Below are positions 8,316 through 63,514 of a DNA stretch of 64,000 nucleotides, piece after piece. Below the pieces are notes generated by a model, which was given only the letters and a program-made list of their open reading frames with translations, made no database searches and was not told where the DNA came from. Numbering within the stretch: position 1 is the first letter of the stretch; every line of letters starts with the position of its first letter. The stretch comes from an uncultured Candidatus Peribacteria bacterium (GTDB lineage Bacteria; Patescibacteriota; Gracilibacteria; UBA4473). The stretch spans positions 4,006-68,005 of the forward strand of contig CAZDZO010000001.1 of NCBI GenBank assembly GCA_964509975.1, given 5' to 3'. Both the position numbers and the translations under genes were made by a program.

Positions 8316-8366
8316 GCCTTCATAATTGTGAAGGGCAAAAAAACAAAAGGCAAATTCTTTTATTTT

Positions 8367-8396
8367 GGGATCCGGATCCGAGGTCGGATCCGGATC
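8367..8396. repeat. GGATCC-family element, 30-nt short form, intergenic
   Basis: GGATCCGGATCC-GAGGTC-GGATCCGGATCC. Confidence 0.9.
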
Positions 8397-8405
8397 CCAA
8401 AATAT

Positions 8406-10847
8406 CTAATAACTCAACGCATCTCTAAACTCTTGTCGGGTCACTTCTCTTCCAAAATCAACACTTCGTCCTGTCACTTTCTTCACCATCGCCGTTGCAT
8501 CGCGCGGTATCACTCCTGCTGTCGGATGAAAGAATGGAGCAATTGAATACCCATCTCGATAACTCAGCAACGCTGCGGAGAAAAACCAATCTCGAGAACT
8601 GACATCTGAAAAAGGATTTTTTCCGGGCATTATTCTCGCGCGTTCTATTGTATAAACGAATGTCGGGACGCCTTCCATTTTCACGTCCTTGAGTCGAAAG
8701 GTAAGTCCTGACAGATATGGTTCATAAAGAAAATAAAACATTCCCGCCCGTGACAATGTTCTATCAGGAAACGCTATTTTTTCTCCATGCTGTTGTCTCA
8801 TATATCGGTACAACACTTTATTATCAGGTCTGACTTCCGTTGGATGCATTGTCTTTGTATTGGGCTCATACCCAGGATACCATTGAGAAGCAGCGACTCT
8901 TTTTTCATAAGAATCAAGTGACACTGTTCTGTTTTGGTATGTACTATTTGGCGTTGGGTTGTCTTGGGGATTTACTGGATCGGCATTGAGAACATATTTC
9001 GAAACCCACACCGGAAAGTGCAACAAATCCTCATTTCCGAATCGATCAATCACCCGCAAAGAAATTTGTTTTTCTCCGGGAGTTGTAAATGTTTTTTTCA
9101 CTTTCTCAGATCCAACGACCACTTTTACTCCCTTGGAAATCAGATCACTTGTTCCACGATAATCAAAATCCCACGCGTACCTGAGTTCTTGTCCGACACT
9201 GTCAGATGCATCAAATTCAAAAACTGTCTTCGTGTCTCCATATCGTCGATTCGCTTTTACACGAGCTTTAACGGATTGCGTCTCTGGAAACACCGTAACC
9301 ATACGAGCCACAGCGTGTACTTTTCCACTTGAATCTTGTGTTTGCATTCGTGCGACATATTGTCCCGCTTCTCTATATCGCCATTCAAATGAAGTCAGGT
9401 GTCTGAATCGATTATCCCATTTTCCGTCTCCATCAGCGTCGAATCGCACCTTTATTCGAGAGTTTGGTGTTTGAGAATCTTGTATCTTTGGAAAGAAATG
9501 CACTTTTTGCCCTACGTAAATATATCGCTGATCTACGGTAAAATTTCCATGAGGTGCTGTACTCGCCACCACTTGTAGAGGGACTGTTGCATCTGTCGAA
9601 ACAAGATCTCGGTTTTGCACCTGCACAACTGGTTTATATTTCCCTTGTCGAGAGAAGACATGCTCTACTCGTGAGTTATTATGAAAAGGAGTATCCCAAT
9701 TTCCATCTCCTTCAAAATCCCATCGGTAGGTAAACCCACCACTTCCACCACTCTGTTGACGAATGCTGGCAGTGAGCACCACTTTGTCTCCGGCCACTAC
9801 CTTAAAAAAAGTTTGTTTTTCTTGTCCAGAAGTAAAGTACGTTCCTCGTGTTCTATTTTGTACACGTAATTCTGCTCGATAATCGAGCGGGTCTTCTTTC
9901 GTTTCCACAATAACGAGTGTCTCTTCGCATTTTGGTTGTGCTCGATCATAACAAGTCCGCACGCGCACTTCGTGTTTTCCTGGAGCATCAAACTTTTTAA
10001 ATACCACATCTTTTCCTTTGATAAATTGTTCCCCTGCAAAACCCCACTCCATCCATGCATGTGCTGGAACTCGAGAATTTGAAGCATCAAATCGAAACAC
10101 GGTATCCTCCGTAAATCCCTTTTTCCCAGGAGAAACATCTACAATCGGAGCAACTACTACGGGAGATGATATCCTCATTTTTGGCCACGTTTCCCTCAGC
10201 ATTGTTCGACGAATCGCTGCACCTCCCTTTGAAGACAAATTCTCAATTCCTCGTATTCGCTTCACCGTTCCGTCTACAAATTTCACTTCCACCGTCGGTG
10301 AAACCTGTCCCACCTCATGAAGGGAGTAGGTGTGAGTGACAATCTTTTGTCGTGAATAAGATGTATCAAATCGTCCATCAGAATTAAAGTCCCATCGAGC
10401 TTGCACCGTGTCTTTGTCTTCCGTTCTCGGTAATGACACTTTGAGTTCAAAGTACGCTGGTTCTCCGGCCCTAATCTTTGTTGGCCGCACAGAAATCCAC
10501 GCTTTTCTATAAATATCTCCGACAACTTTATACGATCGATATGTTGACTGTATTTGCGACGTGTTTCGTTCTCTCACCTGGAGTCGAGCCCTCTGTGTTC
10601 CAATATTCATTGGAATGTATTTTTGACGAGATTTCGTAGACCAGTCTGTCCATGATTCTCCTCCCTTAAATTGGAATCGATATTCCAGTCCACCTTTGCG
10701 TCCTTGGGAGTTAAGAGAGTCTGACGCATCAAATGCAAACTCCTTGGCAATCTGCCCAGTCGCCGGACTGACGGTTAAATTCGCCGTCGGCAGGGTTGAT
10801 GCCCACGCAGTGTTGCAGAAGAAAAAGGAGAAAATACTCAAAATCAT
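8406..10847 (-). CDS. secreted PKD-repeat protein with C-terminal SLH-like domain
   Basis: Signal peptide 'MILSIFSFFFCNTAWA'. Repeated PKD-type motifs ('FAFDASDSLN', 'FRFDASNSRV', 'YRWDFEGDGNWD', 'FEFDASDSVGQELRYAWDFDY'). C-terminal 'FSDVSSRDWFFSAALLSYRDG'. Confidence 0.7.
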   Translation of the reverse strand: MILSIFSFFFCNTAWASTLPTANLTVSPATGQIAKEFAFDASDSLNSQGRKGGLEYRFQFKGGESWTDWSTKSRQKYIPMNIGTQRARLQVRERNTSQIQSTYRSYKVVGDIYRKAWISVRPTKIRAGEPAYFELKVSLPRTEDKDTVQARWDFNSDGRFDTSYSRQKIVTHTYSLHEVGQVSPTVEVKFVDGTVKRIRGIENLSSKGGAAIRRTMLRETWPKMRISSPVVVAPIVDVSPGKKGFTEDTVFRFDASNSRVPAHAWMEWGFAGEQFIKGKDVVFKKFDAPGKHEVRVRTCYDRAQPKCEETLVIVETKEDPLDYRAELRVQNRTRGTYFTSGQEKQTFFKVVAGDKVVLTASIRQQSGGSGGFTYRWDFEGDGNWDTPFHNNSRVEHVFSRQGKYKPVVQVQNRDLVSTDATVPLQVVASTAPHGNFTVDQRYIYVGQKVHFFPKIQDSQTPNSRIKVRFDADGDGKWDNRFRHLTSFEWRYREAGQYVARMQTQDSSGKVHAVARMVTVFPETQSVKARVKANRRYGDTKTVFEFDASDSVGQELRYAWDFDYRGTSDLISKGVKVVVGSEKVKKTFTTPGEKQISLRVIDRFGNEDLLHFPVWVSKYVLNADPVNPQDNPTPNSTYQNRTVSLDSYEKRVAASQWYPGYEPNTKTMHPTEVRPDNKVLYRYMRQQHGEKIAFPDRTLSRAGMFYFLYEPYLSGLTFRLKDVKMEGVPTFVYTIERARIMPGKNPFSDVSSRDWFFSAALLSYRDGYSIAPFFHPTAGVIPRDATAMVKKVTGRSVDFGREVTRQEFRDALSY

Positions 10848-14079: not shown

Positions 14080-17000
14080 ATGAAAAACATTTTTCCCTCG
14101 TTCGACCCTCAAAAATCAATTGCTGAACACGAAACCGATATTTTGAAGTTTTGGAAAGAAAACCAAATTTTTGAAAAATCTGTTAATCGTCGTGCCAAGC
14201 GCAATGAATTCGTGTTTTTTGATGGGCCTCCGTTTGCAACGGGAACACCGCATTATGGACACATACTAGCGGGAGCAATTAAAGATGTGATTCCACGGTA
14301 CAAAACCATGCAAGGATACCGCGTCAATCGAAAATGGGGATGGGATTGCCACGGAGTTCCGGTGGAATTTCAGGTGGAAAAGGAACACCGCATTGGTGGA
14401 AAACCGGGTATTGAAAAAATGGGAGTTGGGAAGTTTAATGAACTCTGTCGAAGTGTCGTCTTGCGATGTGCTGACCAGTGGGAATCAACCGTTGATCGCA
14501 TGGGACGATTTGTGAATTTCAAAGACGATTACAAAACCATGGATCCCGAATTCATGGAATCGGTCTGGTGGGTTTTTGGGGAATTATGGAAAAAGGGACT
14601 CATTTATGAAGGAGAAAAAGTGGTCTCCTATTCTCCGAAGCTCGGAAGTCCTCTTTCTAATTTTGAAGCAAATTTAAATTATAAAGATATTGATGATCCA
14701 GCGGTAACAGTAAAGTTTGAGCTAACAGAAGAATCGAAAACATATTTCTTAGCTTGGACGACGACCCCTTGGACGCTGTTATCGAATTTAGCCTTAGCGG
14801 TGAATCCGAAACTCGAATATGTGAAGGTAAAAAACGAAGAATCTGGAGAAAGTTATTGGCTCGGAAAAGGCGTACTTGAAAAATACGGCATCACTCAAGA
14901 GGGAGAATATACGGAATTTTGGAACGAAGTTGAACGACGAAAAGGAAAAGATCTCATCGGAAAATCTTACACGCCACTTTTTCCTTTCTTCGAGAATCAT
15001 GAGAATGCCTTCCAAGTTCTCTCGGCTGATTACGTGTCGGCAGAAGAGGGGACGGGGATCGTTCATCAGGCCCCGAATTTCGGGGAAGACGATGCCAAGG
15101 CCTGTCATGAAAATAACATTGGACTTCTTGAAAATCCGATTGATGAGCATGGATTTTTTAATGACAAAATTACTGAACTCAAGGGAAAATATTTTCGAGA
15201 TGATCCGGAAGTAGAAGGTTCCGTGGATGACAATGCAAACAAGTGGGTCCTTGATAATTTGGGGACGAAACTCTTTATGAGAAATCAAATTCGACACTCC
15301 TATCCACACTGTTGGAGAACAGATTCTGCATTGATGTATCGAGGAATTAAAACGTGGTTTGTTGATGTGCAGAAAATTAAGAAAACTATTTTAGAACAAA
15401 ACCAAAACATTAATTGGGTGCCAGAACATTTGAAAGATGGTCGATTTGGGAAGATGCTTATTGATGCTCCGGATTGGGCGATTAGTCGAAACAGATACTG
15501 GGGAACTCCAATTCCTGTGTGGCGATGTGACGCGTGTGGAGATATCGAGGTGATGGGATCGCGCGCAGATCTTGAGAAAAAAATTGATAAAAAAGTTGAG
15601 GATCTCCATAAACATTTTGTTGATGATATGGAGTGGGGATGTGCGAAATGTAAGGGGAAAATGAAACGTATCGAGGAAGTGCTCGACTGTTGGTTTGAGT
15701 CTGGGGCGATGCCGTATGCGAGTCAGCATTATCCGTTTGCGAACAAAGAAAAGGATGTTGAACTTCGAGAAGTAAAAACAACGAAAGACTGGGAAACGTA
15801 TCATGAGCTTGTAAAAACCGAACTTTTTGAAAGACTTCTTCCTTCTCTTGTTTATGACAAAAATTATCCTGATGGAATAAACCCAAAGACCGTTTCCAAA
15901 ATCTTGTTTTTGAAAGATGAACCGATTGGAGTTCTTTCCTATGGTCCCGCTGATGCATATAATTCATTGAAAGAATATGCCCCCAAGGATTCTCTCTTTT
16001 TACGATTCATCGCTATCAAGAAAGAGTTTCAAGGCAGAGGATTCGGTCACTCCGCCATAAAAGATTTCAAAAGTTTCGGTTACGAAAATAATTTTGAAAA
16101 TTTAATTTTAAATTCTGCTCCTGGTGCCGTAGGGTTTTATGAAAAACATGGATTTGAAAAGGATTTTTGGACAGGACATGCTGAAACAAATCCTGAAAAC
16201 ACCCCTTTTGGAAAAAAATCTGAAATCGAAAATCTGAAATCGAAAATTGCCGATTTCCCGTCTGCTGACTTCATTGCCGAGGGACTCGATCAAACACGTG
16301 GATGGTTCTACACCCTGCATGTTTTGGGATGCGCGTTGTTTGGAAAAAACATCTTCAAGAACGTGATTACCAATGGAATCGTCTTGGCAGAAGATGGACA
16401 AAAGATGTCCAAGTCCAAGAAGAATTATCCAGATCCAAATATTATTTTTGATAAATACGGAGCGGATGCGATGCGATTTTATATGCTCAATTCTCCAGTT
16501 GTAAGAGGAGAGAATTTCAGGTTCGCCGAGAACGGTGTCGCTGAAGTATTGAAACAAATCATCTTGCCACTGCGTTCGAGTTATCAGTTTTTCTCGACCT
16601 ACGCGAACATCGATAATTGGCAACCAACCAAGTTTCTCTTTGTTCGGCACGGGGAAGGCGACCATAATGTCGCTCATATTTATTCTGGAGATGTGAAGAA
16701 CAAACATCACCTGACAGAGAAGGGTCGAGCACAAATTACCGAAACCGCGAAACACATTCGAAATTTTGATGTCCTTGTTGCATCTCCTTTCATTCGAACA
16801 CAAGAGACCGCTGAGATTCTGAAAAAAGAATGTAAATTTGAAGGCGAAATTATTACTGACGATCGAGTGCGAGAACTCTTTTTTGGAAAACTCGAAGGCA
16901 AGCCCTTCCTTCCAAAAACAGAACGACTCTCAAATAAAGAAACCGAACAACCTGAAGCGGTGGCAAAACGAGTGTCTGAATTCATGTCCGATATGGCGCA

Positions 17001-20188: not shown

Positions 20189-21439
20189 CTAAGTTCTGAT
20201 CTGAAAGATCTCTGCCGAATTTGGATTGGCAAGGAGTCTATTTTGTAAAACCTTATCGACCGTTTCTTTTGAAGCTTCTTTGAAGTTCCAGCATCGGAAG
20301 ATACGAACTCTTACCTCTGTATCAAACATTGTTGAAAGCTTCTCACTAAGCGCCACCGCTGAGTCGTCTTCAAAGGGAAGGACTGCATATTTGAATTCAA
20401 CGGATCCGGATCCCGACTCAATAAGCACCTCTTTATTTGGGTTATAAATCAATCCAGATTCAAACAATTTTTTCTTGGGATCCGGATCCCCTTCAACTTC
20501 AATTTCATACAAGAAAGATTTTTCAAATTCTATTTTTTCACCCGCAATATTGCTGGCAGTTTGTGAAACAGAAAAAGCTTCGTTATCCGTGATAAGGAGT
20601 TTCTTTTCCATCACAATCGCAACTTCTTTAAGTTCTAGAGTTGGTGTTTCTGGAACTTCAACTTTACTAAAATCTCCAATTTCAACACTTTCCGGAGAAC
20701 GTCCTGCTTTAATCCATTCGTTCATTGATTTCATAATCTGGTCTCCATCACATGAAGCATAAAACCGCTCAGGATGGGGCATAATCGCACCCACTGTTCC
20801 CTCCTTGTTTACTATCATTGCGGTAGCGAAAAGAGCTCCGTTTGGAGTAATTGGAAAATTTGCGTCGACATTTCCTTCCTCATCACAGTATCGGAACGCC
20901 ACTTGACTTCCTTCTTCAAGAACTCGTAAAGCTGTTTTATCAATTGATGTGAATCGTCCTTCTCCATGTGCCACTGGCACCTTCAATAATTCTGAAACGT
21001 TATGAGAAAACGCCGTATCTTTTCGTTCTGGTTTGATATTTACCCACACATTGTAGTACCCCGTTCCGAGTACTTTTCCTTCCTTGTCTCGGCGAACATT
21101 GTCGGCGAGCGAGAATGGCACAGGGTTGTCTCCGACCGGAATCAATCCTGATTCTACAATCATTTGAGCTCCATTACACACCCCAAGAATCACTTTTCCT
21201 TTCTTGGCTTCTTCTCGAATAGCGTCGAATATTTTTTCTCGTGCGGCAATTGATCCTGATCGTCCTCGATCTTCAAATGAAAATCCTCCAATCAAAAAAT
21301 ATGCATCAAAGTTTCCTATTTTTTCAATTTCGTTCCAAAGCACGAGTTCTGCTTCAAATCCATTTCTTTCTGCCGCACGAATAGATTCTGATTCGCAATT
21401 ATTTCCAGGGAACGTGATAACGGCAAGTTTTGGGGTCAT
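20189..21439 (-). CDS. purQ: FGAM synthase glutaminase PurQ fused to two tandem PurS-like domains
   Basis: ATG at 21439 ('MTPKLAVITFPGNNCE'). 'LGVCNGAQMIV' holds the Cys nucleophile; 'AHGEGRF' and 'MPHPER' are also present. C-terminal ~165 aa contain two PurS-like repeats, ending 'GLIYNPNKEVLIE' and 'LLANPNSAEIFQI'. The longer ORF-track N-terminus overlaps rmuC and is rejected. Confidence 0.8.
   Translation of the reverse strand: MTPKLAVITFPGNNCESESIRAAERNGFEAELVLWNEIEKIGNFDAYFLIGGFSFEDRGRSGSIAAREKIFDAIREEAKKGKVILGVCNGAQMIVESGLIPVGDNPVPFSLADNVRRDKEGKVLGTGYYNVWVNIKPERKDTAFSHNVSELLKVPVAHGEGRFTSIDKTALRVLEEGSQVAFRYCDEEGNVDANFPITPNGALFATAMIVNKEGTVGAIMPHPERFYASCDGDQIMKSMNEWIKAGRSPESVEIGDFSKVEVPETPTLELKEVAIVMEKKLLITDNEAFSVSQTASNIAGEKIEFEKSFLYEIEVEGDPDPKKKLFESGLIYNPNKEVLIESGSGSVEFKYAVLPFEDDSAVALSEKLSTMFDTEVRVRIFRCWNFKEASKETVDKVLQNRLLANPNSAEIFQIRT
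20402..20413. repeat. single GGATCCGGATCC unit in frame (GSGS) in the PurS-like region
   Basis: Exact 12-mer. Confidence 0.8.
20478..20489. repeat. single GGATCCGGATCC unit in frame (DPDP) in the PurS-like region
   Basis: Exact 12-mer, 64 nt from the unit at 20402. Confidence 0.8.
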
Positions 21440-47649: not shown

Positions 47650-47679
47650 GGATCCGGATCCCCCTAGGGATCCGGATCC
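47650..47679. repeat. GGATCC-family element, 30-nt short form, between convergent rny and trmB (likely a bidirectional terminator hairpin)
   Basis: GGATCCGGATCC-CCCTAG-GGATCCGGATCC. Its last base overlaps the trmB stop codon. Confidence 0.85.
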
Positions 47680-48275
47680 TATTTTTTGAATCGCATCCTC
47701 CATACATCCGCCCCCTCCTTTGTCTTGGCCTGCTCCCAGTCTGTTTGAGTTTCGTAAGGTGAAACTGAGAACTTTTCAATTTTTGAATAAGGAGACGCTT
47801 CTACCACTTCCAAAGTTTCATTAAAAAGAAACTCTTGATCTGTCTGGAAGATAAATTCTGTTTTGTCATTCAACCAGCTCGAACAATTTGTAAGGAATTT
47901 TGAATTAATAAATCGTCGTTTCTTGTGTTTTTCTTTGAACCATGGATCGGGGAAGTTGACGAAAATCTCCTCAACGAACGCTTTTTCTTTTTGGCATGGC
48001 TCGACGATCGCACGAAAGTTTCGCCCTGCGTCTCCGTCGAACACGACGACATTTTTTGAATCGGCGAACTTTGTTCTGAGTTTCTCCGCGAGAGGAACTC
48101 TAATCTCAAAGACGATGAAATTTTTCTCAGGAAATCTCTCAATCAAAGCTTCTACGAATTCTCCCTTGCACGCTCCGACGTCGATAATAATGGGCTTATC
48201 ATTTCCAAACCCCGCAAAGGAAAATTCCTTTGTGATCGCGAGTGGATTTACATGAGGACGAATTCGTTTTGGCAT
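47679..48275 (-). CDS. trmB: tRNA (guanine-N7)-methyltransferase
   Basis: 'IIDVGACKGEFV' and 'FPDPWFKEKHKKRR'. Confidence 0.85.
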   Translation of the reverse strand: MPKRIRPHVNPLAITKEFSFAGFGNDKPIIIDVGACKGEFVEALIERFPEKNFIVFEIRVPLAEKLRTKFADSKNVVVFDGDAGRNFRAIVEPCQKEKAFVEEIFVNFPDPWFKEKHKKRRFINSKFLTNCSSWLNDKTEFIFQTDQEFLFNETLEVVEASPYSKIEKFSVSPYETQTDWEQAKTKEGADVWRMRFKK

Positions 48276-50819: not shown

Positions 50820-53770
50820 TGTCCAAAATTTTGCCAATAATCAATTTCTGTATCGTTCTCAACGTTGGAAACAAATGGGAATTCTAAATTCTGTACTTTT
50901 TGGTGTGCTTTTTTTAGCTCTCCAATAACTTGCGCTCGATCTTCTTCTGATACTTCCAATTGCCGTTGTCCAATTTTTCCCGTGTGGTCACCTGCAGTAA
51001 GAAATTCAAGTTCGCAGACATCAACGTTCCACCCAAGGTCTTTGCTGTTGCGTGCTAAAAGATCGTAAAAAACAAGCTGTCTCCACAAAGATTCTCCTTT
51101 GGTAATGGCTCGTGGTTTCCCTGATTTGTAGTCGACGATTTTGACTTTCGTTTTTTCTGAATTAAAAAAATCAACGCGATCTATTTTTCCAGTGATCCGA
51201 ATATCATCTATTGCAGGAGAATATTTACTGAACGCAAACTCAATCAAAGAATCTTCTTTGAAGGTTTCTTTTCGTTTCTCGTGATAATTCTCCAAGACTT
51301 CTTTTCCGTGGTCTAACCATTTTTCAAATTCCTTTTTTTCTAAATTTTGCCCTCGCAATGCTCGTTCAAATTCGTTGATAAGAAATTCTTGTGTGGGCAA
51401 TTCTTTCGTTCGTTTATAATTTTCCAAGAAACGTTCAAGTGCTTCATGGAGAGCCACTCCGAGTGCAAGCTGAGGAAGCGGGCGACGCGGAAATCGAAGT
51501 AATCTTTGATAGAGGAATTTCCGTGGACAATCCAAATAGGTCTGCAAACTCGTTGCCGACCAAACGAAATCTTTCACTCTTGCTTGAAGAATTTCTTTTT
51601 CTTGAGCAGTAAAAAGCGGTTGTTCCTTTGTCGAAAGAAAAACCGGAATTAGTTTTTGAACCAACTCTTCTGTTTCATCTCGCGGAAGCATTTCACAGAT
51701 TGAATCAGGGATTTCGTGCCAAAATTGTGATGGATTTTTTTCTCGTCCTGAGAAATCTGTCACACTGTAGGACAAGAAAATTTCTTTTCTCGCTCGGGTC
51801 ATCGCTACAAAAAACAAACGTCGTTCATCCTCATTCTCGTCGTGCTCTTCGTGAAAAAGTTGTGGCAATGCAATACCGTTTCTGGCTCTATTATTCCCCC
51901 ATACTCGATCAAGCAATCCTGGAAGAAAGACCACATCAAACTCTCGCCCCTTCGATCCATGGGCAGTAAGAATGTGAACCGCTCTTTGATCAGCGGGAAG
52001 GGAATTTGGTCGAACCGGAATATTTAATTGTGCATGAAGTTCAATCCGCTCAAGAAGTGTTGGAAGATTTTCGCATTTTTGTTCCCGCGCCCATTCGATG
52101 AATTTCCGAATCATCTGCCAATCTTCTGATGATGTTTCGTTGTCTTTTTGTGAAAGAAATTCAGCGAGTCCTGATTCGTATAATAATTTTTCAATCAACA
52201 CTTCTGGACGACAGTGCCAGAATTGTTGACGAGCATTTATGATGAGATCAAAGATTCTTTTCAATGATTCGTCTCTCTTCGATTCCTCTTCTAGGAGCGC
52301 AATAACAGAGTCTTTCTCCTTGTCCCGTTTGAGTGAAAGTTGCAGTAATTTTTCTCCCGAAATCCCAAAGAATTGTGTATGCAGAAGCTCCATCATTTTT
52401 TCGTCATTTCGCGGATCGGCGAATATTTCCAGCATGAGGATTAGAATCCTGATCCATTGATCTTCAAATATGTTTTGAAAAATTTGAGCCGAAACCGGAA
52501 TCCCAAACTTCGGGAGTTCACGTGCGATTTCCAAAACCTCTGCATTTTTTCTGCACAAAATAGCAATTTCCCCAGGAGGTATTCCGTTTTTTAAAGCCCC
52601 CTGAATGCGTTCTACGAGAAAACCAAGCTCACTTAATCGTGCCCCAAACACTGCCTTGTGAATCGTGCCTGTGAAATCTTTATTTGTTCCACTCGCGGTT
52701 AATTTTTTATCCGCATCGGCTCGGGTTTTATTATTGGCAATGGAGGCAAAAGCTCCGTCTAAGATAGTTTGAGCGGATCGGTAATTTTCAGTGAGGGTTA
52801 TTTGCTGGTGAGAAGGGAATTGTTTTTGGAATTCAAAAATGTTCTCCACACTTGCTCCCTGAAACCGATAAATAGCCTGATCATCGTCTCCCACGGCGAA
52901 AATATTGGGGTCGTCCTGAAAATCACTGAGCGCCCATAGGAGCTCGTTTTGTACAGAATTGGTGTCTTGGTACTCATCGATCAAAACCCATTGAAATCGC
53001 TCCGCTAAATCGAGTCTCAAATTTTCATTTTTCTTCACTTCGCCAATCACCCACATGAGCTGATCATCAAAATCAAAGAAGCCTTTTTCTTTCATCTTCG
53101 CTTCGTACACATCCCAGAAGTCAGCCAACTCTTCCATTCTTCGAATCTTTCGATCAATCTCTTCTCGTTTTTTGGGTTTGAAATCCCCAACATTAAATTC
53201 TCCGAATTTTCGTTTGTAGAAATTTTCTGGATCTTCTTCGAGTCGTTTCTTTTCATCGGGAATCAGTGTACGAAGAGTCTGTGCGGAAATGTTTTCTCGT
53301 TTGAGCTTTGAAATAGCCATGAGAATGTCGTGTCTAAATATAAAGTCATCCCAGACACTGGAGAAAAATTCCCATTTTTTTGATCGTACTGCATCTTGAA
53401 AAGCGAGTGCTTTTTGCAGATCGTCAGCGATTTCTCGGGTTCCTCGTAGGTTTTCAAAATACTCTGGATATTCATCCATTACCCACTGACAAAACCCATG
53501 AAATGTTGAAATTTTTACCTTGTACGCTTCATTCCCGATGCCTGATTGAAGCCGATCTCGCATTTCGGTCGCTCCAGCTTCAGTGAAAGTAAGGCACAAA
53601 ATATTATGCGCGTGCGCCCCCACGTCTTGCTGGAGGAGGTGCGCGATGCGTGCTGTTAAAAGGTGTGTTTTCCCTGTTCCTGGACCCGCTAAAACCAAAA
53701 CCTGTCCGTAGACTTTTTCCACCGCTTTGCGTTGGGCGGGATTAAGGTTTTTGAGAAAATCATTCTTCAT
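50816..53770 (-). CDS. UvrD/PcrA-type SF1 helicase fused to a C-terminal PD-(D/E)XK (RecB/AddB-like) nuclease domain
   Basis: 'LVLAGPGTGKTHLL', 'LIDEYQDTN', 'VGDDDQAIYRFQGA'. C-terminal 'YLDCPRKFLY', 'GKIDRVD' and 'IVDYKSGK'. Confidence 0.8.
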   Translation of the reverse strand: MKNDFLKNLNPAQRKAVEKVYGQVLVLAGPGTGKTHLLTARIAHLLQQDVGAHAHNILCLTFTEAGATEMRDRLQSGIGNEAYKVKISTFHGFCQWVMDEYPEYFENLRGTREIADDLQKALAFQDAVRSKKWEFFSSVWDDFIFRHDILMAISKLKRENISAQTLRTLIPDEKKRLEEDPENFYKRKFGEFNVGDFKPKKREEIDRKIRRMEELADFWDVYEAKMKEKGFFDFDDQLMWVIGEVKKNENLRLDLAERFQWVLIDEYQDTNSVQNELLWALSDFQDDPNIFAVGDDDQAIYRFQGASVENIFEFQKQFPSHQQITLTENYRSAQTILDGAFASIANNKTRADADKKLTASGTNKDFTGTIHKAVFGARLSELGFLVERIQGALKNGIPPGEIAILCRKNAEVLEIARELPKFGIPVSAQIFQNIFEDQWIRILILMLEIFADPRNDEKMMELLHTQFFGISGEKLLQLSLKRDKEKDSVIALLEEESKRDESLKRIFDLIINARQQFWHCRPEVLIEKLLYESGLAEFLSQKDNETSSEDWQMIRKFIEWAREQKCENLPTLLERIELHAQLNIPVRPNSLPADQRAVHILTAHGSKGREFDVVFLPGLLDRVWGNNRARNGIALPQLFHEEHDENEDERRLFFVAMTRARKEIFLSYSVTDFSGREKNPSQFWHEIPDSICEMLPRDETEELVQKLIPVFLSTKEQPLFTAQEKEILQARVKDFVWSATSLQTYLDCPRKFLYQRLLRFPRRPLPQLALGVALHEALERFLENYKRTKELPTQEFLINEFERALRGQNLEKKEFEKWLDHGKEVLENYHEKRKETFKEDSLIEFAFSKYSPAIDDIRITGKIDRVDFFNSEKTKVKIVDYKSGKPRAITKGESLWRQLVFYDLLARNSKDLGWNVDVCELEFLTAGDHTGKIGQRQLEVSEEDRAQVIGELKKAHQKVQNLEFPFVSNVENDTEIDYWQNFGQ

Positions 53771-57601: not shown

Positions 57602-59263
57602 TTATTCCGTAATAAGCTCATGCACCTTTTGCATCATCTTTGCCGCTTCGGCTCGGAGAATTGAGTTTTTTGGTTGAAATGTTCCGTCAGGATATCCATT
57701 AATGATGCCCAGTTTTTTTCCGTGCTGGATGATGTGAATGTCTGGAGAATGATAGTCAACATCGATAAAAGAACTTCTCACAATTACATCTGGAACATCT
57801 ACATGAAACACTTCAAAGATAGCACGAAGAACTTCAACTCTATCTGCTTTTTTGTCTGGATTTGGATGACCTGCCCACATCGTCATCCCAAGAGATTCTC
57901 CCATCGCAATTTCATCATGTGCCCAGTGATTCTCTGCATATGAATTGGCTGGTATTAAGGCTGGATCGAATGGCATATTTGCCAGTTGAAAAAGCATATT
58001 TGTAATTTCTGCTTTTGTTACCGGATCCCCAGGACCAAAGAGTCCTGTTTCGTTTCCGTTGTCATCAAGATAACCGCCAATGATACCCAAGTTTTGAAGG
58101 AACCTCACAGGTCCCAAGAACCACGCTTCTTCATCAACATCGATAAATGGAATTTCTCCTACCCGAAATTTTTCGCGTGCAGAACTCGTCCGTGCCTCAA
58201 CCACAAGGGAGTTCAATAATTCAATTTCCTGCTCTAGTCGCGTTCTATCTGAAAGCATCTGTGTAAATTCCAAAAAGTTCTCGATGTATTGAATAAGGTT
58301 TCGTCGCGGTGTTGGTTTAAAATTATATTGATGAAGTACAAAAGAAAGTTCTGTAAGTCTGTCAGCCCCTTTGTCACTAATTCGTGGACGCAAGGCGTTC
58401 AGTTCAACATGTTTCACATCAAAGAGTTCTACCGCTTGTTTGAAGTTTGCAATACGAGGCACTTCCTCTGGAAAACACTCCCCATCATACTGCCAAAAAA
58501 CATCTTTCTTTTTGTTGAGATAACACATGTTACTATAGATTTTTCCATCGCTCCCACATACGGGATCGTAATCATCCGTACAAGCCGTTTCTTCTGGAAA
58601 ACTCCAGTGCTGACAAGCCCCTTCGTGGACAATTTCCATTCCTTTTTGAAAAGGAAAACAGCGATTATAGTATGTTTTCCCGTCGCTTCCGCACACAGGT
58701 TCTTCGCGTAAATTACATTCTGGCGAAGGACTTTCAATATGATTTCCAAGTAATATTTTGTTAGCCGTAATAGGAAAGTCTCCCATGAACCACGTATCAG
58801 GATCGCGGAAATCGTCTTCTTCGAGAACAAGAAATTCTGGGTTGGGAATAGAGAACTGGTGTTCCCCTGAAAATGTTCCCATGGAAGTGTCGGCTAAAAT
58901 ACGAAACTCCGTTGTTTTGTTGTCTGGCAACCAGACATTTAAGTTTGAAAATTGCATTACATCACTGTCTGCCAATGCCATTTTTCCGAGTGATTTATTC
59001 CCTTGCATAAGTTCATACCGCACAAATTGATCGCGATTATCTCCTTGATGAAGAAAGCGAAATTTCTTTAATGTTACTCCTTCTGCATTATGGTTTGATG
59101 CCGTCATCCAAACGCGAAAAACTTCCACGTTTTCTACTCCCGGTTCCATTCTTTGGGTAGGTAAGTTACTCGGACTGAGACGAACCTCAAGTTCAGGACG
59201 AACAGCTGCAAAGGTGCTTGAAAAAAGAAAAAGAAAACCGAATGCAATCACGTATTTTTTCAT
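57602..59263 (-). CDS. secreted protein with two Kazal-type inhibitor domains and C-terminal SLH domains
   Basis: Signal peptide 'MKKYVIAFGFLFLFSSTFAA'. 'CNLREEPVCGSDGKTYYNRC' and 'CTDDYDPVCGSDGKIYSNMC'. C-terminal 'FIDVDYHSPDIHIIQHGKKLGIINGYPDGTFQPKNSILRAEAAKMM'. Confidence 0.75.
   Translation of the reverse strand: MKKYVIAFGFLFLFSSTFAAVRPELEVRLSPSNLPTQRMEPGVENVEVFRVWMTASNHNAEGVTLKKFRFLHQGDNRDQFVRYELMQGNKSLGKMALADSDVMQFSNLNVWLPDNKTTEFRILADTSMGTFSGEHQFSIPNPEFLVLEEDDFRDPDTWFMGDFPITANKILLGNHIESPSPECNLREEPVCGSDGKTYYNRCFPFQKGMEIVHEGACQHWSFPEETACTDDYDPVCGSDGKIYSNMCYLNKKKDVFWQYDGECFPEEVPRIANFKQAVELFDVKHVELNALRPRISDKGADRLTELSFVLHQYNFKPTPRRNLIQYIENFLEFTQMLSDRTRLEQEIELLNSLVVEARTSSAREKFRVGEIPFIDVDEEAWFLGPVRFLQNLGIIGGYLDDNGNETGLFGPGDPVTKAEITNMLFQLANMPFDPALIPANSYAENHWAHDEIAMGESLGMTMWAGHPNPDKKADRVEVLRAIFEVFHVDVPDVIVRSSFIDVDYHSPDIHIIQHGKKLGIINGYPDGTFQPKNSILRAEAAKMMQKVHELITE
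58475..58717 (-). other. tandem Kazal-like domains (aa 184-264 in ORF-track numbering)
   Basis: Cys spacing and the 'PVCGSDGKxY.N.C' core, present twice. Confidence 0.7.
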
Positions 59264-59318
59264 CAAGTTTTACTTTACACCCTTTCTTGAAAAAGAAAAA
59301 TCGAGCCTTCTTCTTTTT

Positions 59319-61472: not shown

Positions 61473-61656
61473 CGCCGGCAACCTACCATATTTTCAAAAA
61501 AAAATCTTTGAAATTTTCAAGAATTTCCGTATAACCTTTTCGCTGTTTTCCAAAAGATTATGAGCGCAGGGTGGCGCAGGACGAATAGGGTTGAATGAGT
61601 GTAGCGAATGAAATCCGTTAAATGAGTCCGAGAACTCTGTGCGAATAAAGAGGAGC

Positions 61657-61719
61657 GATCACGAAGTATGACGCCCTTCGTCGAAGACGAAGAAGTCCAA
61701 CGAAGTGATCCAGCGACGA
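61657..61719 (+). ncRNA. conserved structured 5' leader immediately upstream of tRNA-Thr
   Basis: 55/63 nt identical to 63206-63268. Nested stems GATCAC/GTGATC and CTTCGTC/GACGAAG, each with one compensatory change in the other copy. Confidence 0.6.
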
Positions 61720-61794
61720 GCCGTCATAGCTCAGTGGTAGAGCACGACCATGGTAAGGTCGGGGTCTTGGGTTCAAATCCCAATGACGGCTCCA
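61720..61794 (+). tRNA. tRNA-Thr (anticodon GGU), CCA encoded
   Basis: Hand-folded cloverleaf: acceptor GCCGTCA/TGACGGC, D arm GCTC..GAGC, anticodon stem CGACC/GGTCG with loop ATGGTAA, T arm TTGGG-TTCAAAT-CCCAA. Confidence 0.92.
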
Positions 61795-61894
61795 GCCTTC
61801 GCCCGAAGAGCTTCGGCTGGCAAGCCAAGCGATTCGTTTCGCGAAGTGCTGTCCTCCGAATCCCGATTTATCGGGAGAAGGGGGACCTTTTGAA

Positions 61895-63124
61895 TTGCTT
61901 TTAAACTTGATTTCCAGTAAACACTCACCCGTGAAAACCTACCTCTTCGTTCTCGGCAGAAACCCAATTCTCTCTCGAACAGAGTTACTGCCTTTTTGTG
62001 ATGAACTGTTTTATGCAGAAGATAAATCATTAATGTTGGCAGAGAATATAAAATTCGAAAACCCACGAGATTTACCCAAATCTCCCGAACAAATTTTCCT
62101 CGACAGACTCGGTGGAACGATTCGGATGGGAGAAGTTTTGGGGGAATTTCGAAGTGAGAAAGAAGTGCAAGATGAGATTGTGAAGCAGGTTCAAACCGAC
62201 AAACCCGAGGGAAAAGTGCAACTTGGGGTGTCAGCATGGGGATGCGGAAAGACCTTTCTCCGACACTTCTTACCTGAGATGAAGAATGCTCTTCGTGCCC
62301 AACACGATCGGAACTGTCGTATCGTGAATGCGCCTGGAAAAAATCTTGATTCTGGAAAAATCTTTGGCGAAAAACTTTTGAAAAAAGGTTTTGAATTTCT
62401 CGTTTGGAAACGAAAAGACACTTTCCTCTTGGCAAAAACAGCGGCTAATCAAAATCTGAGAAACTATGTTTTGAGAGATCGCGATAAGGATTTCCGAGAT
62501 GCGCGTATGGGAATGCTCCCTCCGAAGGTGGCTCAAATCTTGCTCAACCTTGCCAGCCCTTCGTGGGACGACGTTGTCATTGATCCGTTTTGCGGAAGTG
62601 GAACGGTTAACATTGAAGCGGCCATTACAGGATTCAAGACAATCGGTTCTGATCTCGACGAAAAACGAACCAAAAAAGCCAAAGAGAATTTTGAACAAAT
62701 GGCAGAAAAATTTCGATATGAAAAAGATTCTGGTGAGTTTTTTGCGGGTGATGCACTTAAATTTCCTCTCAAGAAAGCTACGGGTGTCTTTGTAACAGAG
62801 GGATTTTTGGGGGATGTATTTGAGAAGCATGCCACGGTGCAATCAATCGCTGATGCTAGTCGATTCATTCTCCACATGTGGGAAAAAACAATAGCCCACC
62901 TTGAAGATTCGTCTGTGCACACCATTGCCCTTTGTCTTCCCGCATGGAAATTTAAAGGAAAAACAATTTCGATAAGCGAAGATTTATTTGCTAAAATAGC
63001 GAAAAGTTCTTATATTCCGTCCGCTCTTTTTGATGGGAAAAAAACATTTATTTATTCCAGACCTGATAGTTTTGTGGGAAGGGAAATATGCGTTCTTTCT
63101 AAAAACCCTCCGAATGAGGGGTAG
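61895..63124 (+). CDS. putative RNA methyltransferase (UPF0020/Trm11-like class I SAM MTase)
   Basis: 'GMLPPKVAQILLNLA' and 'VIDPFCGSGTVNIEAA'. The start is non-ATG (TTG at 61895 or GTG at 61931). Confidence 0.6.
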   Translation: MLLNLISSKHSPVKTYLFVLGRNPILSRTELLPFCDELFYAEDKSLMLAENIKFENPRDLPKSPEQIFLDRLGGTIRMGEVLGEFRSEKEVQDEIVKQVQTDKPEGKVQLGVSAWGCGKTFLRHFLPEMKNALRAQHDRNCRIVNAPGKNLDSGKIFGEKLLKKGFEFLVWKRKDTFLLAKTAANQNLRNYVLRDRDKDFRDARMGMLPPKVAQILLNLASPSWDDVVIDPFCGSGTVNIEAAITGFKTIGSDLDEKRTKKAKENFEQMAEKFRYEKDSGEFFAGDALKFPLKKATGVFVTEGFLGDVFEKHATVQSIADASRFILHMWEKTIAHLEDSSVHTIALCLPAWKFKGKTISISEDLFAKIAKSSYIPSALFDGKKTFIYSRPDSFVGREICVLSKNPPNEG

Positions 63125-63205
63125 CTGAGTGCGAGTAAGATGCGCGAGTGTAACGAGCGAATCTGTTAAGCGAGCACGAAGACCTCCTTATGAGGAAAGA
63201 TGAGT

Positions 63206-63268
63206 GGTCACGAAGTCTGACGCCCTTCGCCAAAGGCGAAGAAGTCCAACGCAGTGACCCAACGACGA
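63206..63268 (+). ncRNA. conserved structured 5' leader immediately upstream of tRNA-Asn
   Basis: Homologue of 61657-61719, with stems GGTCAC/GTGACC and CTTCGCC/GGCGAAG. Confidence 0.6.
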
Positions 63269-63343
63269 TCCCGGGTAGCTCAGTGGTAGAGCAATTGGCT
63301 GTTAACCAATTGGCCGCCGGTTCGAATCCGGCCCCGGGAGCCA
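63269..63343 (+). tRNA. tRNA-Asn (anticodon GUU), CCA encoded
   Basis: Hand-folded cloverleaf: acceptor TCCCGGG/CCCGGGA, anticodon stem ATTGG/CCAAT with loop CTGTTAA, T arm GCCGG-TTCGAAT-CCGGC. Confidence 0.92.
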
Positions 63344-63354
63344 TTTGAAAAAGA

Positions 63355-63379
63355 ACAAACCCTTGCGGTTTGTTTTTTT
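63355..63379 (+). terminator. intrinsic terminator after tRNA-Asn
   Basis: ACAAACC-CTTGC-GGTTTGT followed by a T-run. Confidence 0.7.
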
Positions 63380-63410
63380 CGAATTTGCACGCGAAGCGTG
63401 TCGAACCGAA

Positions 63411-63451
63411 GGTTCGATTTATAGCGAAGCGTCATCCGGCTCCGGGAGCCA
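63411..63451 (+). pseudogene. duplicated 3' fragment of tRNA-Asn (T arm plus acceptor plus CCA), interrupted by about 16 nt
   Basis: GGTTCGA[tttatagcgaagcgtc]ATCCGGCTCCGGGAGCCA compared with the tRNA 3' end GGTTCGAATCCGGCCCCGGGAGCCA. It is followed by a second terminator-like hairpin and the same ATTTGCAC word. Confidence 0.6.
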
Positions 63452-63514
63452 TAAAAAAATCATCGACCCTTGTGGTTGATTATTTTTTTATTTGCACAAT
63501 AGGCACTCTTCTCT

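Follow-up and report, generated by a model that had tools for sequence, protein, structure and literature searches.

Two homologous leaders in front of tRNA-Thr and tRNA-Asn

Within the window (the whole 64-kb stretch of DNA that was analysed), the leaders of tRNA-Thr and tRNA-Asn may well be paralogues that belong to a modular, lineage-restricted family of structured RNAs not described before. In CPR bacteria of the Peregrinibacteria/Gracilibacteria group, this family would make up the 5' leaders of tRNA genes and the spacers between genes, be co-transcribed with the tRNAs and be released by RNase P.

The 63 nt before tRNA-Thr (61657-61719) and the 63 nt before tRNA-Asn (63206-63268) were compared anew, and the identity of 55 out of 63 positions reported in the earlier note was borne out. 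Four of the eight differences make up two compensatory pairs (GATCAC/GTGATC versus GGTCAC/GTGACC and CTTCGTC/GACGAAG versus CTTCGCC/GGCGAAG), and CGACGA is indeed the 3' end of both leaders. The weaker similarity that had been noticed further upstream is true homology with many more compensatory changes, but its scope had been taken too small, as it reaches to ~61540 and ~63090. The feature has a size of about 165-180 nt, not the 63 or 63 + 80 nt proposed before, and comprises two structured domains. Scanned over the window, a degenerate pattern of the 44-nt core matched the Thr and Asn sites only; shuffles predicted 0 matches. As for extra copies in the window, the search with covariance models gave only two weak matches (52974-53041 with 22 bits and 14897-14940 with 18 bits); both lie within coding genes and were discarded as false positives. 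The two copies and their surroundings are made up as follows:

61508..61535, + strand: promoter-like TTGAAA-N16-TATAAC, read directly in the sequence; transcription would thus start at ~61541-61545, where the module begins
61540..61719, + strand: complete Thr leader module (covariance models R1, 199.5 bits; R3, 191.9 bits)
61558..61648, + strand: Domain 1, long type, an irregular ~90-nt hairpin with nested tandem G.A (GA/GA) internal loops
61647..61656, + strand: purine-rich linker AAAGAGGAGC, which can pair with the pyrimidine tract 61547-61551 at the 5' end of the module (MFE fold)
61657..61710, + strand: Domain 2 (model R2, 97 bits)
61711..61719, + strand: single-stranded tail CAGCGACGA, the last base of which is the A at tRNA position -1
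61720..61794, + strand: tRNA-Thr (GGT), found by ARAGORN and Rfam, CCA encoded
61795..61930, + strand: structured 3' trailer of tRNA-Thr, equivalent to the methylase 5' UTR; a helix CCAGCC...GGCTGG sequesters the CCA end
61931..63124, + strand: gene of a UPF0020 / RlmKL-like (THUMP-family type) RNA methyltransferase between the two tRNAs (Pfam PF01170, E = 1.2e-11)
63090..63268, + strand: complete Asn leader module (covariance models R1, 210.6 bits; R3, 181.7 bits), with Domain 1 at ~63109-63196, the linker at 63196-63205, Domain 2 at 63206-63259 and the tail CAACGACGA at 63260-63268
63269..63343, + strand: tRNA-Asn (GTT), found by ARAGORN and Rfam, CCA encoded
63354-63374: intrinsic-terminator-like hairpin after tRNA-Asn

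The promoter-like box ends ~5-10 nt before the Thr module and was missed by a consensus promoter scan because its second hexamer ends with C and not with T. The orthologous loci L001, L003 and L004 carry a TTGAAA...TATAAG box at the equivalent position. The putative promoter would drive a unit of Thr leader, tRNA-Thr, methylase and tRNA-Asn; no further tRNA was found in ~7 kb and ~4 kb of the source contig beyond the window. This locus is present on 22 contigs. As expected for a part of a tRNA precursor, the module lies on the tRNA strand between the promoter or upstream gene and tRNA position +1, with no terminator in between. The trailer of tRNA-Thr is missing in sister species, where the spacer to the methylase measures only 12 nt (L003, L004), and two trailers in L050 contain the same CCA-sequestering helix with three compensatory positions. 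The window lineage carries structured inserts at all three junctions, namely, leader, trailer and Asn spacer. Compared with the C-terminus in L003 and L004, the last ~8 codons of the methylase (SKNPPNEG*) come from the 5' end of the Asn module. A pairing of leader and trailer as an rRNA-like processing stem was dismissed by eye, with complementarities of only 5-6 nt.

Architecture of the module

Each copy consists of two hairpin rods: Domain 1 measures ~90 nt and contains several tandem G.A loops, and Domain 2 measures 54 nt. They are connected by the purine-rich linker AAAGAGGAG, and a 9-nt tail, (C)AGCGACGA, adjoins tRNA position +1. In the Thr copy, Domain 1, linker and Domain 2 are surrounded by a 6-bp terminal helix TCGCTG...CAGCGA, which is inconsistent across the members of the family. 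The MFE fold of the Thr module reached z = -3.9 together with the tRNA and z = -3.5 alone.

The conserved blocks of Domain 1 are GGG(G)T(A/G)GC..AG, GAGTGTA(A/G)CGA at the tip and CGA(A/G)(G/A)AC(C)TC. The tip (UGUAA) was also considered as a T-loop, a reading that was rejected: position 5 is G in three of seven sequences and fits a plain U-A/U.G pair. The linker is near-invariant in all members (AAGAGGAG). Domain 2 runs from P1 (GATCAC/GTGATC) over a symmetric GAA/GAA loop and P2/P3 with an A.A mismatch to the tip hairpin CTTCGTC-GAA-GACGAAG; its base is kept across genomes and its tip varies. The tail (C)CAGCGACGA was also observed before tRNA-Glu (L053), tRNA-Met (L059) and tRNA-Asn (L057), and it adjoins the complement of a CCA end in L047. 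Its length ranges between 6 and 12 nt, and an A occupies position -1 in most copies.

The module is thus modular itself, with two alternative types of Domain 1 (the ~90-nt long rod or a short hairpin) and a variable Domain 2 tip. The loop sequences are identical in the copies before tRNA-Met and tRNA-Lys and do not track the anticodon; the module sequence is not tRNA-specific.

Evidence for selection on the RNA fold

An alignment of seven sequences contains 43 pairs, which are 89% paired. Double changes occur in 23 of them; shuffles gave 12.4 ± 2.1 such pairs, and slid controls 3-6. Helices 2-4 of Domain 1 are 93-97% paired in this alignment, with both sides changed in 12 of 20 pairs. For Domain 2, a 12-sequence alignment (A6) revealed double changes in 13 of 18 pairs, and its P1 is 97% paired with covariation in 4 of 6 pairs. 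Between the window and the L001 orthologues, nine pairs changed: six in a fully compensatory manner, two to a wobble and one as a gain, while none was disrupted. The sense strand folds better than the antisense strand by 6-13 kcal/mol in 7/7 members, and several G.U pairs are conserved. These alignments indicate that the fold is under purifying selection in place, and therefore the RNA would do something for the cell or for itself.

Distribution among related genomes

Further members were detected with degenerate pattern scans and covariance models in five other MAGs of the Peregrinibacteria/Gracilibacteria group; the sample comprises about 12 distinct copies from 7 genomes. They are located directly 5' of tRNA-Thr and tRNA-Asn (window, L001), tRNA-Glu (L053), tRNA-Ile, tRNA-Ala and tRNA-Lys (L050), tRNA-Met (L059), tRNA-Asn (L057) and tRNA-Thr (L003), with a gap between module and tRNA of 0-3 nt in sense copies. 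Modules also occupy tRNA-tRNA spacers in L059 and L050. Two members, L037 and L047, are antisense against a tRNA 3' end (of tRNA-Val in L047), and the reverse complement of their Domain 2 tip looks like the intrinsic terminator of that tRNA. A role purely as a 'leader' does not fit these antisense copies with their terminator-like tip.

The earlier note had named three outcomes that would speak against a homologous structured leader, all of which were tested and none of which was seen. Further copies do precede other tRNAs in related MAGs (Glu, Ile, Lys, Ala, Met, Asn, Thr), and the stem changes in these additional copies are compensatory. A recent local duplication with identical flanks was ruled out by the divergence of ~40% in Domain 1 and by the orthologues of both copies in a second genome. 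The interpretation as a homologous structured leader is therefore supported.

In sister species, the same operon of promoter, tRNA-Thr, methylase and tRNA-Asn was found with spacers of only 12-25 nt. At the Thr site, L003 contains a different, shorter (short-type) module, and the leader in L004 and L005 measures only ~12-15 nt. The distance from methylase to tRNA-Asn is 12-25 nt in L003-L007. These short spacers at equivalent sites mark the module as an accessory, patchily distributed insertion, and since sister species manage without it at the same tRNAs, it is not essential for tRNA maturation. In L057, with a methylase only 54% identical to the one of the window, the Asn site also has a module, and the base of its Domain 2 and its tail are identical.

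The copy number is low. Over the 64 kb of the window and ~11 kb of flanking sequence, models R1, R2 and R3 detected just two copies, and the remaining ~250 kb of related loci contained none. Among genome contigs, the exact or degenerate core pattern occurred in one relative only, L001. In metagenome contigs, it matched an L001-type contig again, in addition to 17 coding matches without a tRNA and with covariance-model scores <20 bits, which were set aside as chance. A 20-base degenerate pattern gave 19 matches in 596 Gb scanned, 6 of them in this small clade. Pattern scans of viral contigs yielded 0 matches and thus no evidence for a phage origin. No description of such tRNA leaders was found in the literature.

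Tests against known RNA families and elements

The 4227 covariance models of Rfam 15, including 5S rRNA, SRP, 6S, tmRNA, RNase P RNA, T-box, riboswitches and GOLLD/ROOL, were run against the modules. At gathering thresholds, only tRNAs were detected in the window. No match covered either leader even at E ≤ 10, in agreement with the earlier note, which had recognised no known RNA family. At E ≤ 1, no match overlapped the modules in L047, L050, L053, L057 and L059. Word similarities to 5S, tmRNA and RNase P RNA that were seen by eye got no support from the covariance models, and self-cleaving ribozymes (hammerhead, twister, pistol, hatchet, HDV-like) gave no Rfam match at E ≤ 10. A T-box leader was rejected, given loops without anticodon tracking, no terminator after the module and a tRNA as the downstream gene.

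Known kinds of DNA element were considered as well. REP, REPIN or MITE sequences in the sense of many dispersed copies per genome do not agree with only two copies in window and flanks. A comparison of filled and empty sites revealed no clear target-site duplication. An integron attC origin was discarded: GTTAAAT and GTTAAGC are seen in the copies of the window, but the orthologues in L001 have lost them, and no GTTRRRY core was found at the borders of the L037 repeats. Likewise, core sites and an integrase are absent for a reading of the L037 direct repeats as attC or att sites.

Proposed processing and alternative explanations

The module would be transcribed on the tRNA strand within the pre-tRNA, at the Thr locus beginning at promoter position +1. 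The processing of pre-tRNA 5' leaders by RNase P is a universal pathway, from which we infer that the cut at tRNA +1 frees the module and sets its 3' end; the freed leader may then accumulate. The favoured reading is that RNase P releases a self-contained 'leader cassette', a compact RNA with paired ends and a putative scaffold for the binding of protein or RNA. The invariant loop nucleotides and the G.A motifs look like a putative binding surface for a common factor. The Asn module is continuous with the methylase mRNA, and therefore a free RNA would need a second cut at this site; this copy could simply be a 3' UTR. Its insertion at both sites probably took place in a common ancestor of one sister species and the genome of the window. 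Its patchy spread between tRNA loci and genomes would most likely have occurred by recombination or gene conversion anchored in conserved tRNA sequences. The functions suggested in the earlier note (a processing or stability element, a regulatory leader or a tRNA-linked small RNA) remain the right candidates, which can only be ranked.

A close alternative, which is possible but less probable, is that the module would act solely in cis as a spacer for processing, insulation or stability. The tRNA fold and the RNase P site would then be shielded from translating ribosomes and neighbouring RNA; once RNase P has cut, the methylase mRNA upstream would be left with a protective 3' structure, and the released piece would be functionless. 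The tight packing in sister species agrees with this, as tRNA-Asn begins just 12-25 nt past the methylase stop and only 12 nt separate the end of tRNA-Thr from the start of the methylase, and so do the structured inserts in all three junctions of the window lineage and the modules filling tRNA-tRNA spacers in L059 and L050. The constant single-stranded tail would keep the RNase P site accessible. However, the Thr module has no upstream mRNA in need of protection, and close relatives manage without a module. In addition, a generic spacer needs no invariant loops, yet the loops are kept between genomes with ~54% identical proteins.

A bolder reading is rather doubtful. The module could represent a novel kind of RNase-P-delimited RNA cassette, self-contained and structured, that spreads horizontally and parasitises, or was recruited to, tRNA units. 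Any acceptor stem, of a sense tRNA or of a mirror-image antisense tRNA, would serve as its signal for 3'-end maturation, and it would act as RNA subunit or decoy of a putative protein binding G.A motifs. A candidate partner would be some part of the machinery that processes tRNAs in CPR bacteria, which is divergent. If true, no bacterial family of portable 'leader genes' common to many tRNAs would have preceded it.

An unlikely reading is a selfish element aiming at tRNA gene borders, mobile or non-autonomous (MITE-, REPIN- or PATE-like), the hairpins of which would matter as DNA or transposition intermediate and not as cellular RNA. Such an element, too, would be expected to combine a patchy distribution with highly conserved sequence. 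Presence and absence differ at identical sites among species with 86-90% identical methylases, one site carries different module subtypes in different lineages, and distant hosts share an identical tail and base of Domain 2. The tRNA border is used in either orientation (in L047 and L037 the tail directly adjoins the complement of the CCA end; the sense gap is 0-3 nt), two near-identical copies flank a RhuM/Fic cassette in L037, and GIY-YIG insertions and att-like duplications are frequent at tRNA-Asn, a hotspot for both. On the other hand, the very low copy number (two in window and flanks, none in the related DNA) argues against it, and no consistent terminal inverted repeats or target-site duplications could be defined. 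No transposase is linked to the module; the Y1_Tnp gene of the window is 60 kb away amid different, unrelated GGATCC palindromes. Compensation between orthologues, conserved G.U pairs and the folding bias of the sense strand point to an RNA maintained in place.

A regulatory leader (riboswitch, attenuator or thermosensor) through which a ligand or protein would control the transcription of the tRNA or the access of RNase P is very improbable. A conserved complex fold within a 5' leader would be in line with it, and the terminal helix ends ~4 nt from the cleavage site so that its pairing could modulate RNase P. But neither an alternative of terminator and antiterminator nor a U-run after Domain 2 was found, at least seven different tRNAs have the same module in front of them although most tRNAs, and the sister species, lack it, and conservation resides in the loops of a rod rather than in the kind of multi-helix junction that ligand pockets typically have.

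Chance resemblance, a recent neutral local duplication or a small protein can practically be neglected: the core-pattern shuffles and the covariance-model scores exclude the first, the compensated Domain 1 divergence of ~40% and the orthologues in a second genome rule out the second, and the frames called by gene callers across the module (the ATG-initiated one at 61668-61904 and a parallel open one in the Asn copy) are spurious, as the Asn copy has CTG in place of the ATG, the Thr copy of L001 is frameshifted by an insertion of 1 nt and the frame runs through the tRNA.

Significance

Bacterial pre-tRNA leaders are usually regarded as short, unconserved and disposable. Here, several CPR genomes contain a covariation-supported fold of 110-180 nt with exchangeable domains, placed before at least seven different tRNAs; it is kept by compensation, yet gained and lost between sister species. 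This provides RNA databases with a concrete new family and improves annotation, as gene callers now call spurious ORFs at these sites. It also offers a handle on the processing of tRNA and mRNA in the tRNA-mRNA-tRNA operons of minimal-genome bacteria, the RNase P RNAs of which are divergent (PMC8172020). The module may exemplify structured RNAs that spread by hitch-hiking on tRNA genes.

Comparison with known systems

The module shares with T-box Stem I a long irregular hairpin, G.A (K-turn-like) motifs and a leader tied to tRNA biology. Unlike a T-box, it is located before tRNA genes and not before aminoacyl-tRNA synthetase genes, it lacks a T-box or antiterminator as well as a specifier varying with the tRNA, and Rfam gave no match.

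GOLLD and ROOL are large orphan bacterial ncRNAs of 500-800 nt with multiple junctions, often near tRNA genes and often in prophages. They resemble the module as orphan structured RNAs of poorly studied or uncultured lineages with a genomic association to tRNAs, but their Rfam models match it neither in sequence nor in structure, and the pattern scans of viral contigs gave no copy of the module.

REP, BIME, REPIN and MITE sequences are similar in that they are imperfect intergenic hairpins, patchy among relatives, which can protect upstream mRNA 3' ends. In contrast, the module is of low copy number (two per >64 kb), much larger, composed of two domains, positioned at tRNA borders and strand-biased, with G.U pairs and compensation in place. 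The window has an actual REP-like family (GGATCCGGATCC, beside the Y1_Tnp gene), which is unrelated to the module.

A tRNA or tRNA-like structure downstream directs the RNase P-dependent formation of 3' ends in MALAT1/mascRNA, plant tRNA-snoRNA, the tRNA-C/D sRNA dicistrons of Nanoarchaeum and the tRNA-miRNA of MHV68. As in these systems, a structured upstream RNA adjoins the tRNA with a short single-stranded tail before the cut, and RNase P would set its 3' end. The known systems are eukaryotic, archaeal or viral, whereas processing of the module is predicted, and the module has no conserved C/D or other guide boxes.

Functional RNAs are also cut from the spacers of tRNA precursors, for instance the sponge RNA 3'ETS-leuZ of E. 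coli and other ETS- or ITS-derived fragments. Like them, the module lies within a tRNA transcript, needs no separate gene and would be freed by tRNA-processing nucleases. To our knowledge, the ETS and ITS examples are short, species-specific, act by base pairing and are not common to different tRNA operons, while the module constitutes a covarying family of 110-180 nt that precedes at least seven different tRNAs in several genomes.

The Thr-methylase-Asn operon and its two leaders

Two tRNA genes were the only RNA genes that ARAGORN and Rfam detected in the whole 64-kb window, and each is directly preceded by a structured leader, termed the module here. They flank a methylase gene; the divergent gene upstream of the operon encodes a sugar-nucleotide dehydratase.

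61508-61535: promoter-like TTGAAA-N16-TATAAC, at the same position in three orthologous loci
61720-61794: tRNA-Thr(GGT), ARAGORN and Rfam
61931-63124: UPF0020/RlmKL-type RNA methyltransferase gene, between tRNA-Thr and the Asn module
63269-63343: tRNA-Asn(GTT), ARAGORN and Rfam

Judging from the position of the promoter-like box, the transcript is predicted to begin with the opening bases of the Thr module. The Asn module begins within the last codons of the methylase gene and provides the C-terminus and stop codon of the enzyme. Public gene calls place a 78-aa ORF (61668-61904, +) and a 52-aa ORF (63190-63348, +) across Domain 2 and the tRNAs; both are almost certainly spurious and caused by the unannotated RNA.

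The earlier note had described two similar 63-nt leaders with nested stems. A recount gave the same 55 identities in 63 positions, and the proposed stems do differ between the copies by two clean compensatory pairs. Within the window, a 44-nt degenerate core pattern matched at the two leaders only, with 0 matches expected by chance. The similarity was confirmed, and pairwise alignment showed that it is not limited to 63 or 140 nt: the homology runs from ~61540 and ~63090 up to the tRNAs (~175-180 nt). The two leaders are a real feature and belong to a new RNA family. Identity between them is 87% beside the tRNA and about 60% distally, and tRNA-Thr and tRNA-Asn have 18-nt blocks in common. This gradient and the common blocks suggest that recombination anchored in the tRNA may have spread or homogenised the module.

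Anatomy of the module

Consensus folds and folds of single sequences including the tRNA (z = -3.9 and -2.8) agreed on the following layout, listed 5' to 3' apart from the closing helix:

5' end: pyrimidine-rich, could pair with the linker
Terminal helix TCGCTG/CAGCGA: 6 bp, closes the module in the Thr copy
Domain 1, 61558-61648 (Thr copy): irregular rod of ~90 nt, short helices split by tandem G.A (GA/GA) loops
Linker between Domains 1 and 2: AAAGAGGAG
Domain 2, 61657-61710 (Thr copy): P1, symmetric GAA/GAA loop, P2/P3 with a conserved A.A mismatch, tip hairpin
Tail: CAGCGACGA, 9 nt, single-stranded, its last base being tRNA -1

Domain 1 has kept its tip, CGAGUGUA(A/G)CGAG, and likewise its lower internal loop, GGGGUAGCUGAG / CGAAGACCUC. 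It occurs in two types, a long one starting with GGGGUAGCUGAG and a short one consisting of the hairpin CCCCGAAAAAU...AUUUUUUGGGG, each found at different tRNAs in different genomes. The base of Domain 2 and the tail are nearly invariant among family members, whereas the Domain 2 tip is freely replaced. The stretch GAGGAGCGATCACGAA...GAAGTGATCCAGCGACGA is the same in the window and in the related locus L057, although the L057 methylase is only 54% identical.

The same locus in relatives

When one genome per species was scanned with the core pattern, a single relative emerged, a MAG of Candidatus Peribacteria (locus L001) with the same Thr-methylase-Asn synteny and both modules. Metagenomes yielded this genome type again, and the other 17 matches there were rejected as chance. 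In the window's own population, 22 public contigs carry identical modules.

Six orthologous loci were fetched with the methylase as anchor. L003, L004 and L005 have a compact operon with tRNA-Asn 12-25 nt after the methylase gene, and in L003 and L004 only ~12 nt separate the tRNA-Thr end from that gene. The methylase-tRNA-Asn spacer is short as well in L006 and L007, where no tRNA-Thr was found near the methylase. The Thr leader measures only ~12-15 nt in L004 and L005 and ~110 nt in L003, where it is of a different kind. The window genome and L001 have in common the modules and a 136-nt structured trailer 3' of tRNA-Thr (61795-61930). The trailer is missing in the sister species L003 and L004, and species with an equally close or even closer methylase (86-90% identity) lack both modules and trailer. 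Modules and trailer are thus derived insertions.

A conserved structured module was also seen in tRNA 3' trailers, at 61795-61930 and at L050 7249-7345 and 7599-7690. In its helix the encoded CCA, together with 3 nt, pairs with an NNNUGG further downstream, behind which comes CAAGCC. The window version is CCAGCC...GGCUGGCAAGCC and the L050 version CCAUUC...GAAUGGCAAGCC; three positions are compensatory.

A wider family at tRNA borders

R1, a covariance model built from the four copies of the window and L001, weakly matched two direct repeats in L037, and the kinship of these repeats with the L003 Thr leader was therefore recognised: they have linker, P1, GAA/GAA loop and tail in common. A 20-base degenerate pattern designed from these features gave 19 matches in 596 Gb, six of them new and from Peribacteria/Gracilibacteria/Altimarinota MAGs. 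A second model, R2, confirmed five of the six, and all confirmed matches adjoin a tRNA according to ARAGORN. R3, built from seven long-type copies, added two further members in L050.

L053: 5' of tRNA-Glu(CTC)
L050: 5' of tRNA-Ile(GAT)
L059: occupies the tRNA-Leu / tRNA-Met spacer
L057: in the spacer from the methylase gene to tRNA-Asn
L047: antisense copy, abutting the tRNA-Val CCA end
L050 (R3): Domain-1-only copy, 5' of tRNA-Lys(TTT)
L050 (R3): short-type copy, 5' of tRNA-Ala(TGC)

A module accompanies 10 of the 14 tRNAs visible in module-bearing genomes vs 0 of 15 in other relatives. Pattern scans found no copies in viral contigs, and no copy matched Rfam. With its covariation support, the module represents a new family of modular structured RNAs, which is physically coupled to tRNA 5' borders, confined to one CPR clade, and low-copy, accessory and patchy in distribution.

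There are two readings of the antisense copies in L047 and L037. In one, a 7-bp acceptor stem directly after the tail is still provided by the mirror-image tRNA; in the other, the tRNA has its own terminator in the reverse-complemented Domain 2 tip. On an Altimarinota chromosome, tRNA-Asn has a ~95-nt structured leader (L042 1370-1466) with a closing helix AAGGGC/GCCCUU, internal GAGGAGCG and a tail ...ATGACGA. It went undetected by the covariance models and may be a more divergent family member.

Selection on fold and strand

In a 7-sequence alignment, 89% of cells were paired, compared with 76% in shuffles and 32-43% in slid controls. Double changes occurred in 23 of 43 pairs (shuffles 12.4 ± 2.1, slid controls 3-6). 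A 12-sequence alignment of Domain 2, which was fitted to the model and is hence structure-biased, had them in 13 of 18 pairs. The strictest test set the window copies against their L001 orthologues, at a divergence of roughly 5-10%. Changes affected nine pairs: six fully compensatory, two to wobble, one pair gained and none disrupted. This outcome argues for selection acting in place and not solely in a mobile source copy. In all seven members, folding is better by 6-13 kcal/mol for the sense than for the antisense strand, and several G.U pairs are kept; the functional form is thus the RNA of the tRNA strand.

Neighbouring repeats and insertions

Downstream of tRNA-Asn (region 63344-63500), 63326-63351 is duplicated ~108 nt further on at 63434-63459. 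The duplication (ATCCGGCTCCGGGAGCCATAAAAAAA...) comprises the tRNA 3' end, a terminator-like hairpin and the word ATTTGCAC, and looks like an integration/excision scar at the tRNA-Asn 3' end; L003 has a related but different arrangement there. In L001 (860-1390, minus strand; identical to L012), a ~450-nt segment is inserted between the Asn module and an intact tRNA-Asn. Its contents are a 5' fragment of tRNA-Asn, a small ORF for a GIY-YIG nuclease (MYVYLIENKEGVIYIGST...) and a further two tRNA-fragment repeats, and each such repeat contains the palindrome TCCCGACAAGTCGGGA. In L037 (1690-2069), tRNA-Asn likewise adjoins a similar GIY-YIG gene and palindrome, and the segment is probably a homing-type element targeting tRNA-Asn. 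The palindrome (G)TCCCGACNNGTCGGGA(A) recurs at L050 7125-7142, L053 ~2722-2740 and L001 ~1020-1040; its contexts are the Domain 2 tip of the L050 Ala leader, tRNA fragments and further intergenic DNA. It seems to be a hairpin word common to the clade.

The L037 direct repeats (277-395 and 1499-1618) are near-identical, ~135 nt long, and flank a RhuM/Fic-domain gene beside tRNA-Asn. They contain a short Domain 1, Domain 2 and the last 7-8 nt of tRNA-Asn, antisense. Just upstream, 190-276 resembles what is left of a Thr leader of the L003 type, joined to the first tRNA-Thr bases.

Elsewhere in the window, palindromic repeats based on GGATCCGGATCC (876-941, 1757-1816, 2095-2160, 2247-2294, 8350-8415, 20461-20492 and 47650-47697) cluster around a 177-aa gene (1480-2013, -) with a weak Y1_Tnp (IS200/RAYT-like) Pfam match; in this CPR genome they probably form a REP/RAYT system. 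Another palindrome family, GAGTTCGAACTCTAAGAGTTCGAACTC, occurs at 1443, 2018 and 7592. A 554-aa protein (57602-59266, -) combines Kazal-type protease-inhibitor and SLH (S-layer homology) domains, a pairing unusual for a bacterium.

Proposed role and alternatives

We rate the module as a kind of tRNA-precursor-associated structured RNA. By the universal pre-tRNA pathway, module and tRNA would form one transcript, which RNase P would cut apart at +1. The tail, constant, purine-rich and single-stranded over 6-12 nt, would keep this site accessible at whatever place the module inserts. That the module is a leader cassette complete in itself, yielding a compact RNA whose ends are paired and whose invariant loops and G.A motifs would be recognised by a common factor, has about an even chance of being right. 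That it represents something categorically new, a portable RNA cassette matured by RNase P, is rather unlikely.

The main rival confines the module to a cis role, that of an insulator or stability spacer within tRNA-mRNA-tRNA operons. It is a tentative but serious possibility. Without the module, translation in such operons stops 12 nt from the tRNA. Less probable, and on the whole unlikely, is a selfish element; the patchy distribution, insertion hugging tRNA borders in either orientation and the L037 duplication around the RhuM/Fic gene speak for it, but the low copy number, the compensation in place and the strand bias speak against it. A riboswitch or attenuator is poorly supported and highly improbable, and chance or a small ORF, as poorly supported, is next to negligible.

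Comparison with known systems

Rfam families, ribozymes, T-box, REP/MITE and attC were each rejected since the module lacks at least one defining feature of each. For CPR bacteria, a literature search turned up no description of tRNA leaders with conserved structure. CPR RNase P RNAs are unusually divergent (PMC8172020), and a preference for A at -1 is reported for the protein-only HARP RNase P (PMC12439589); most modules have A at -1. In its principle of action, the module would resemble the spacer-derived RNAs of tRNA operons and also RNAs that owe their 3' end to RNase P cleavage at a tRNA lying downstream.
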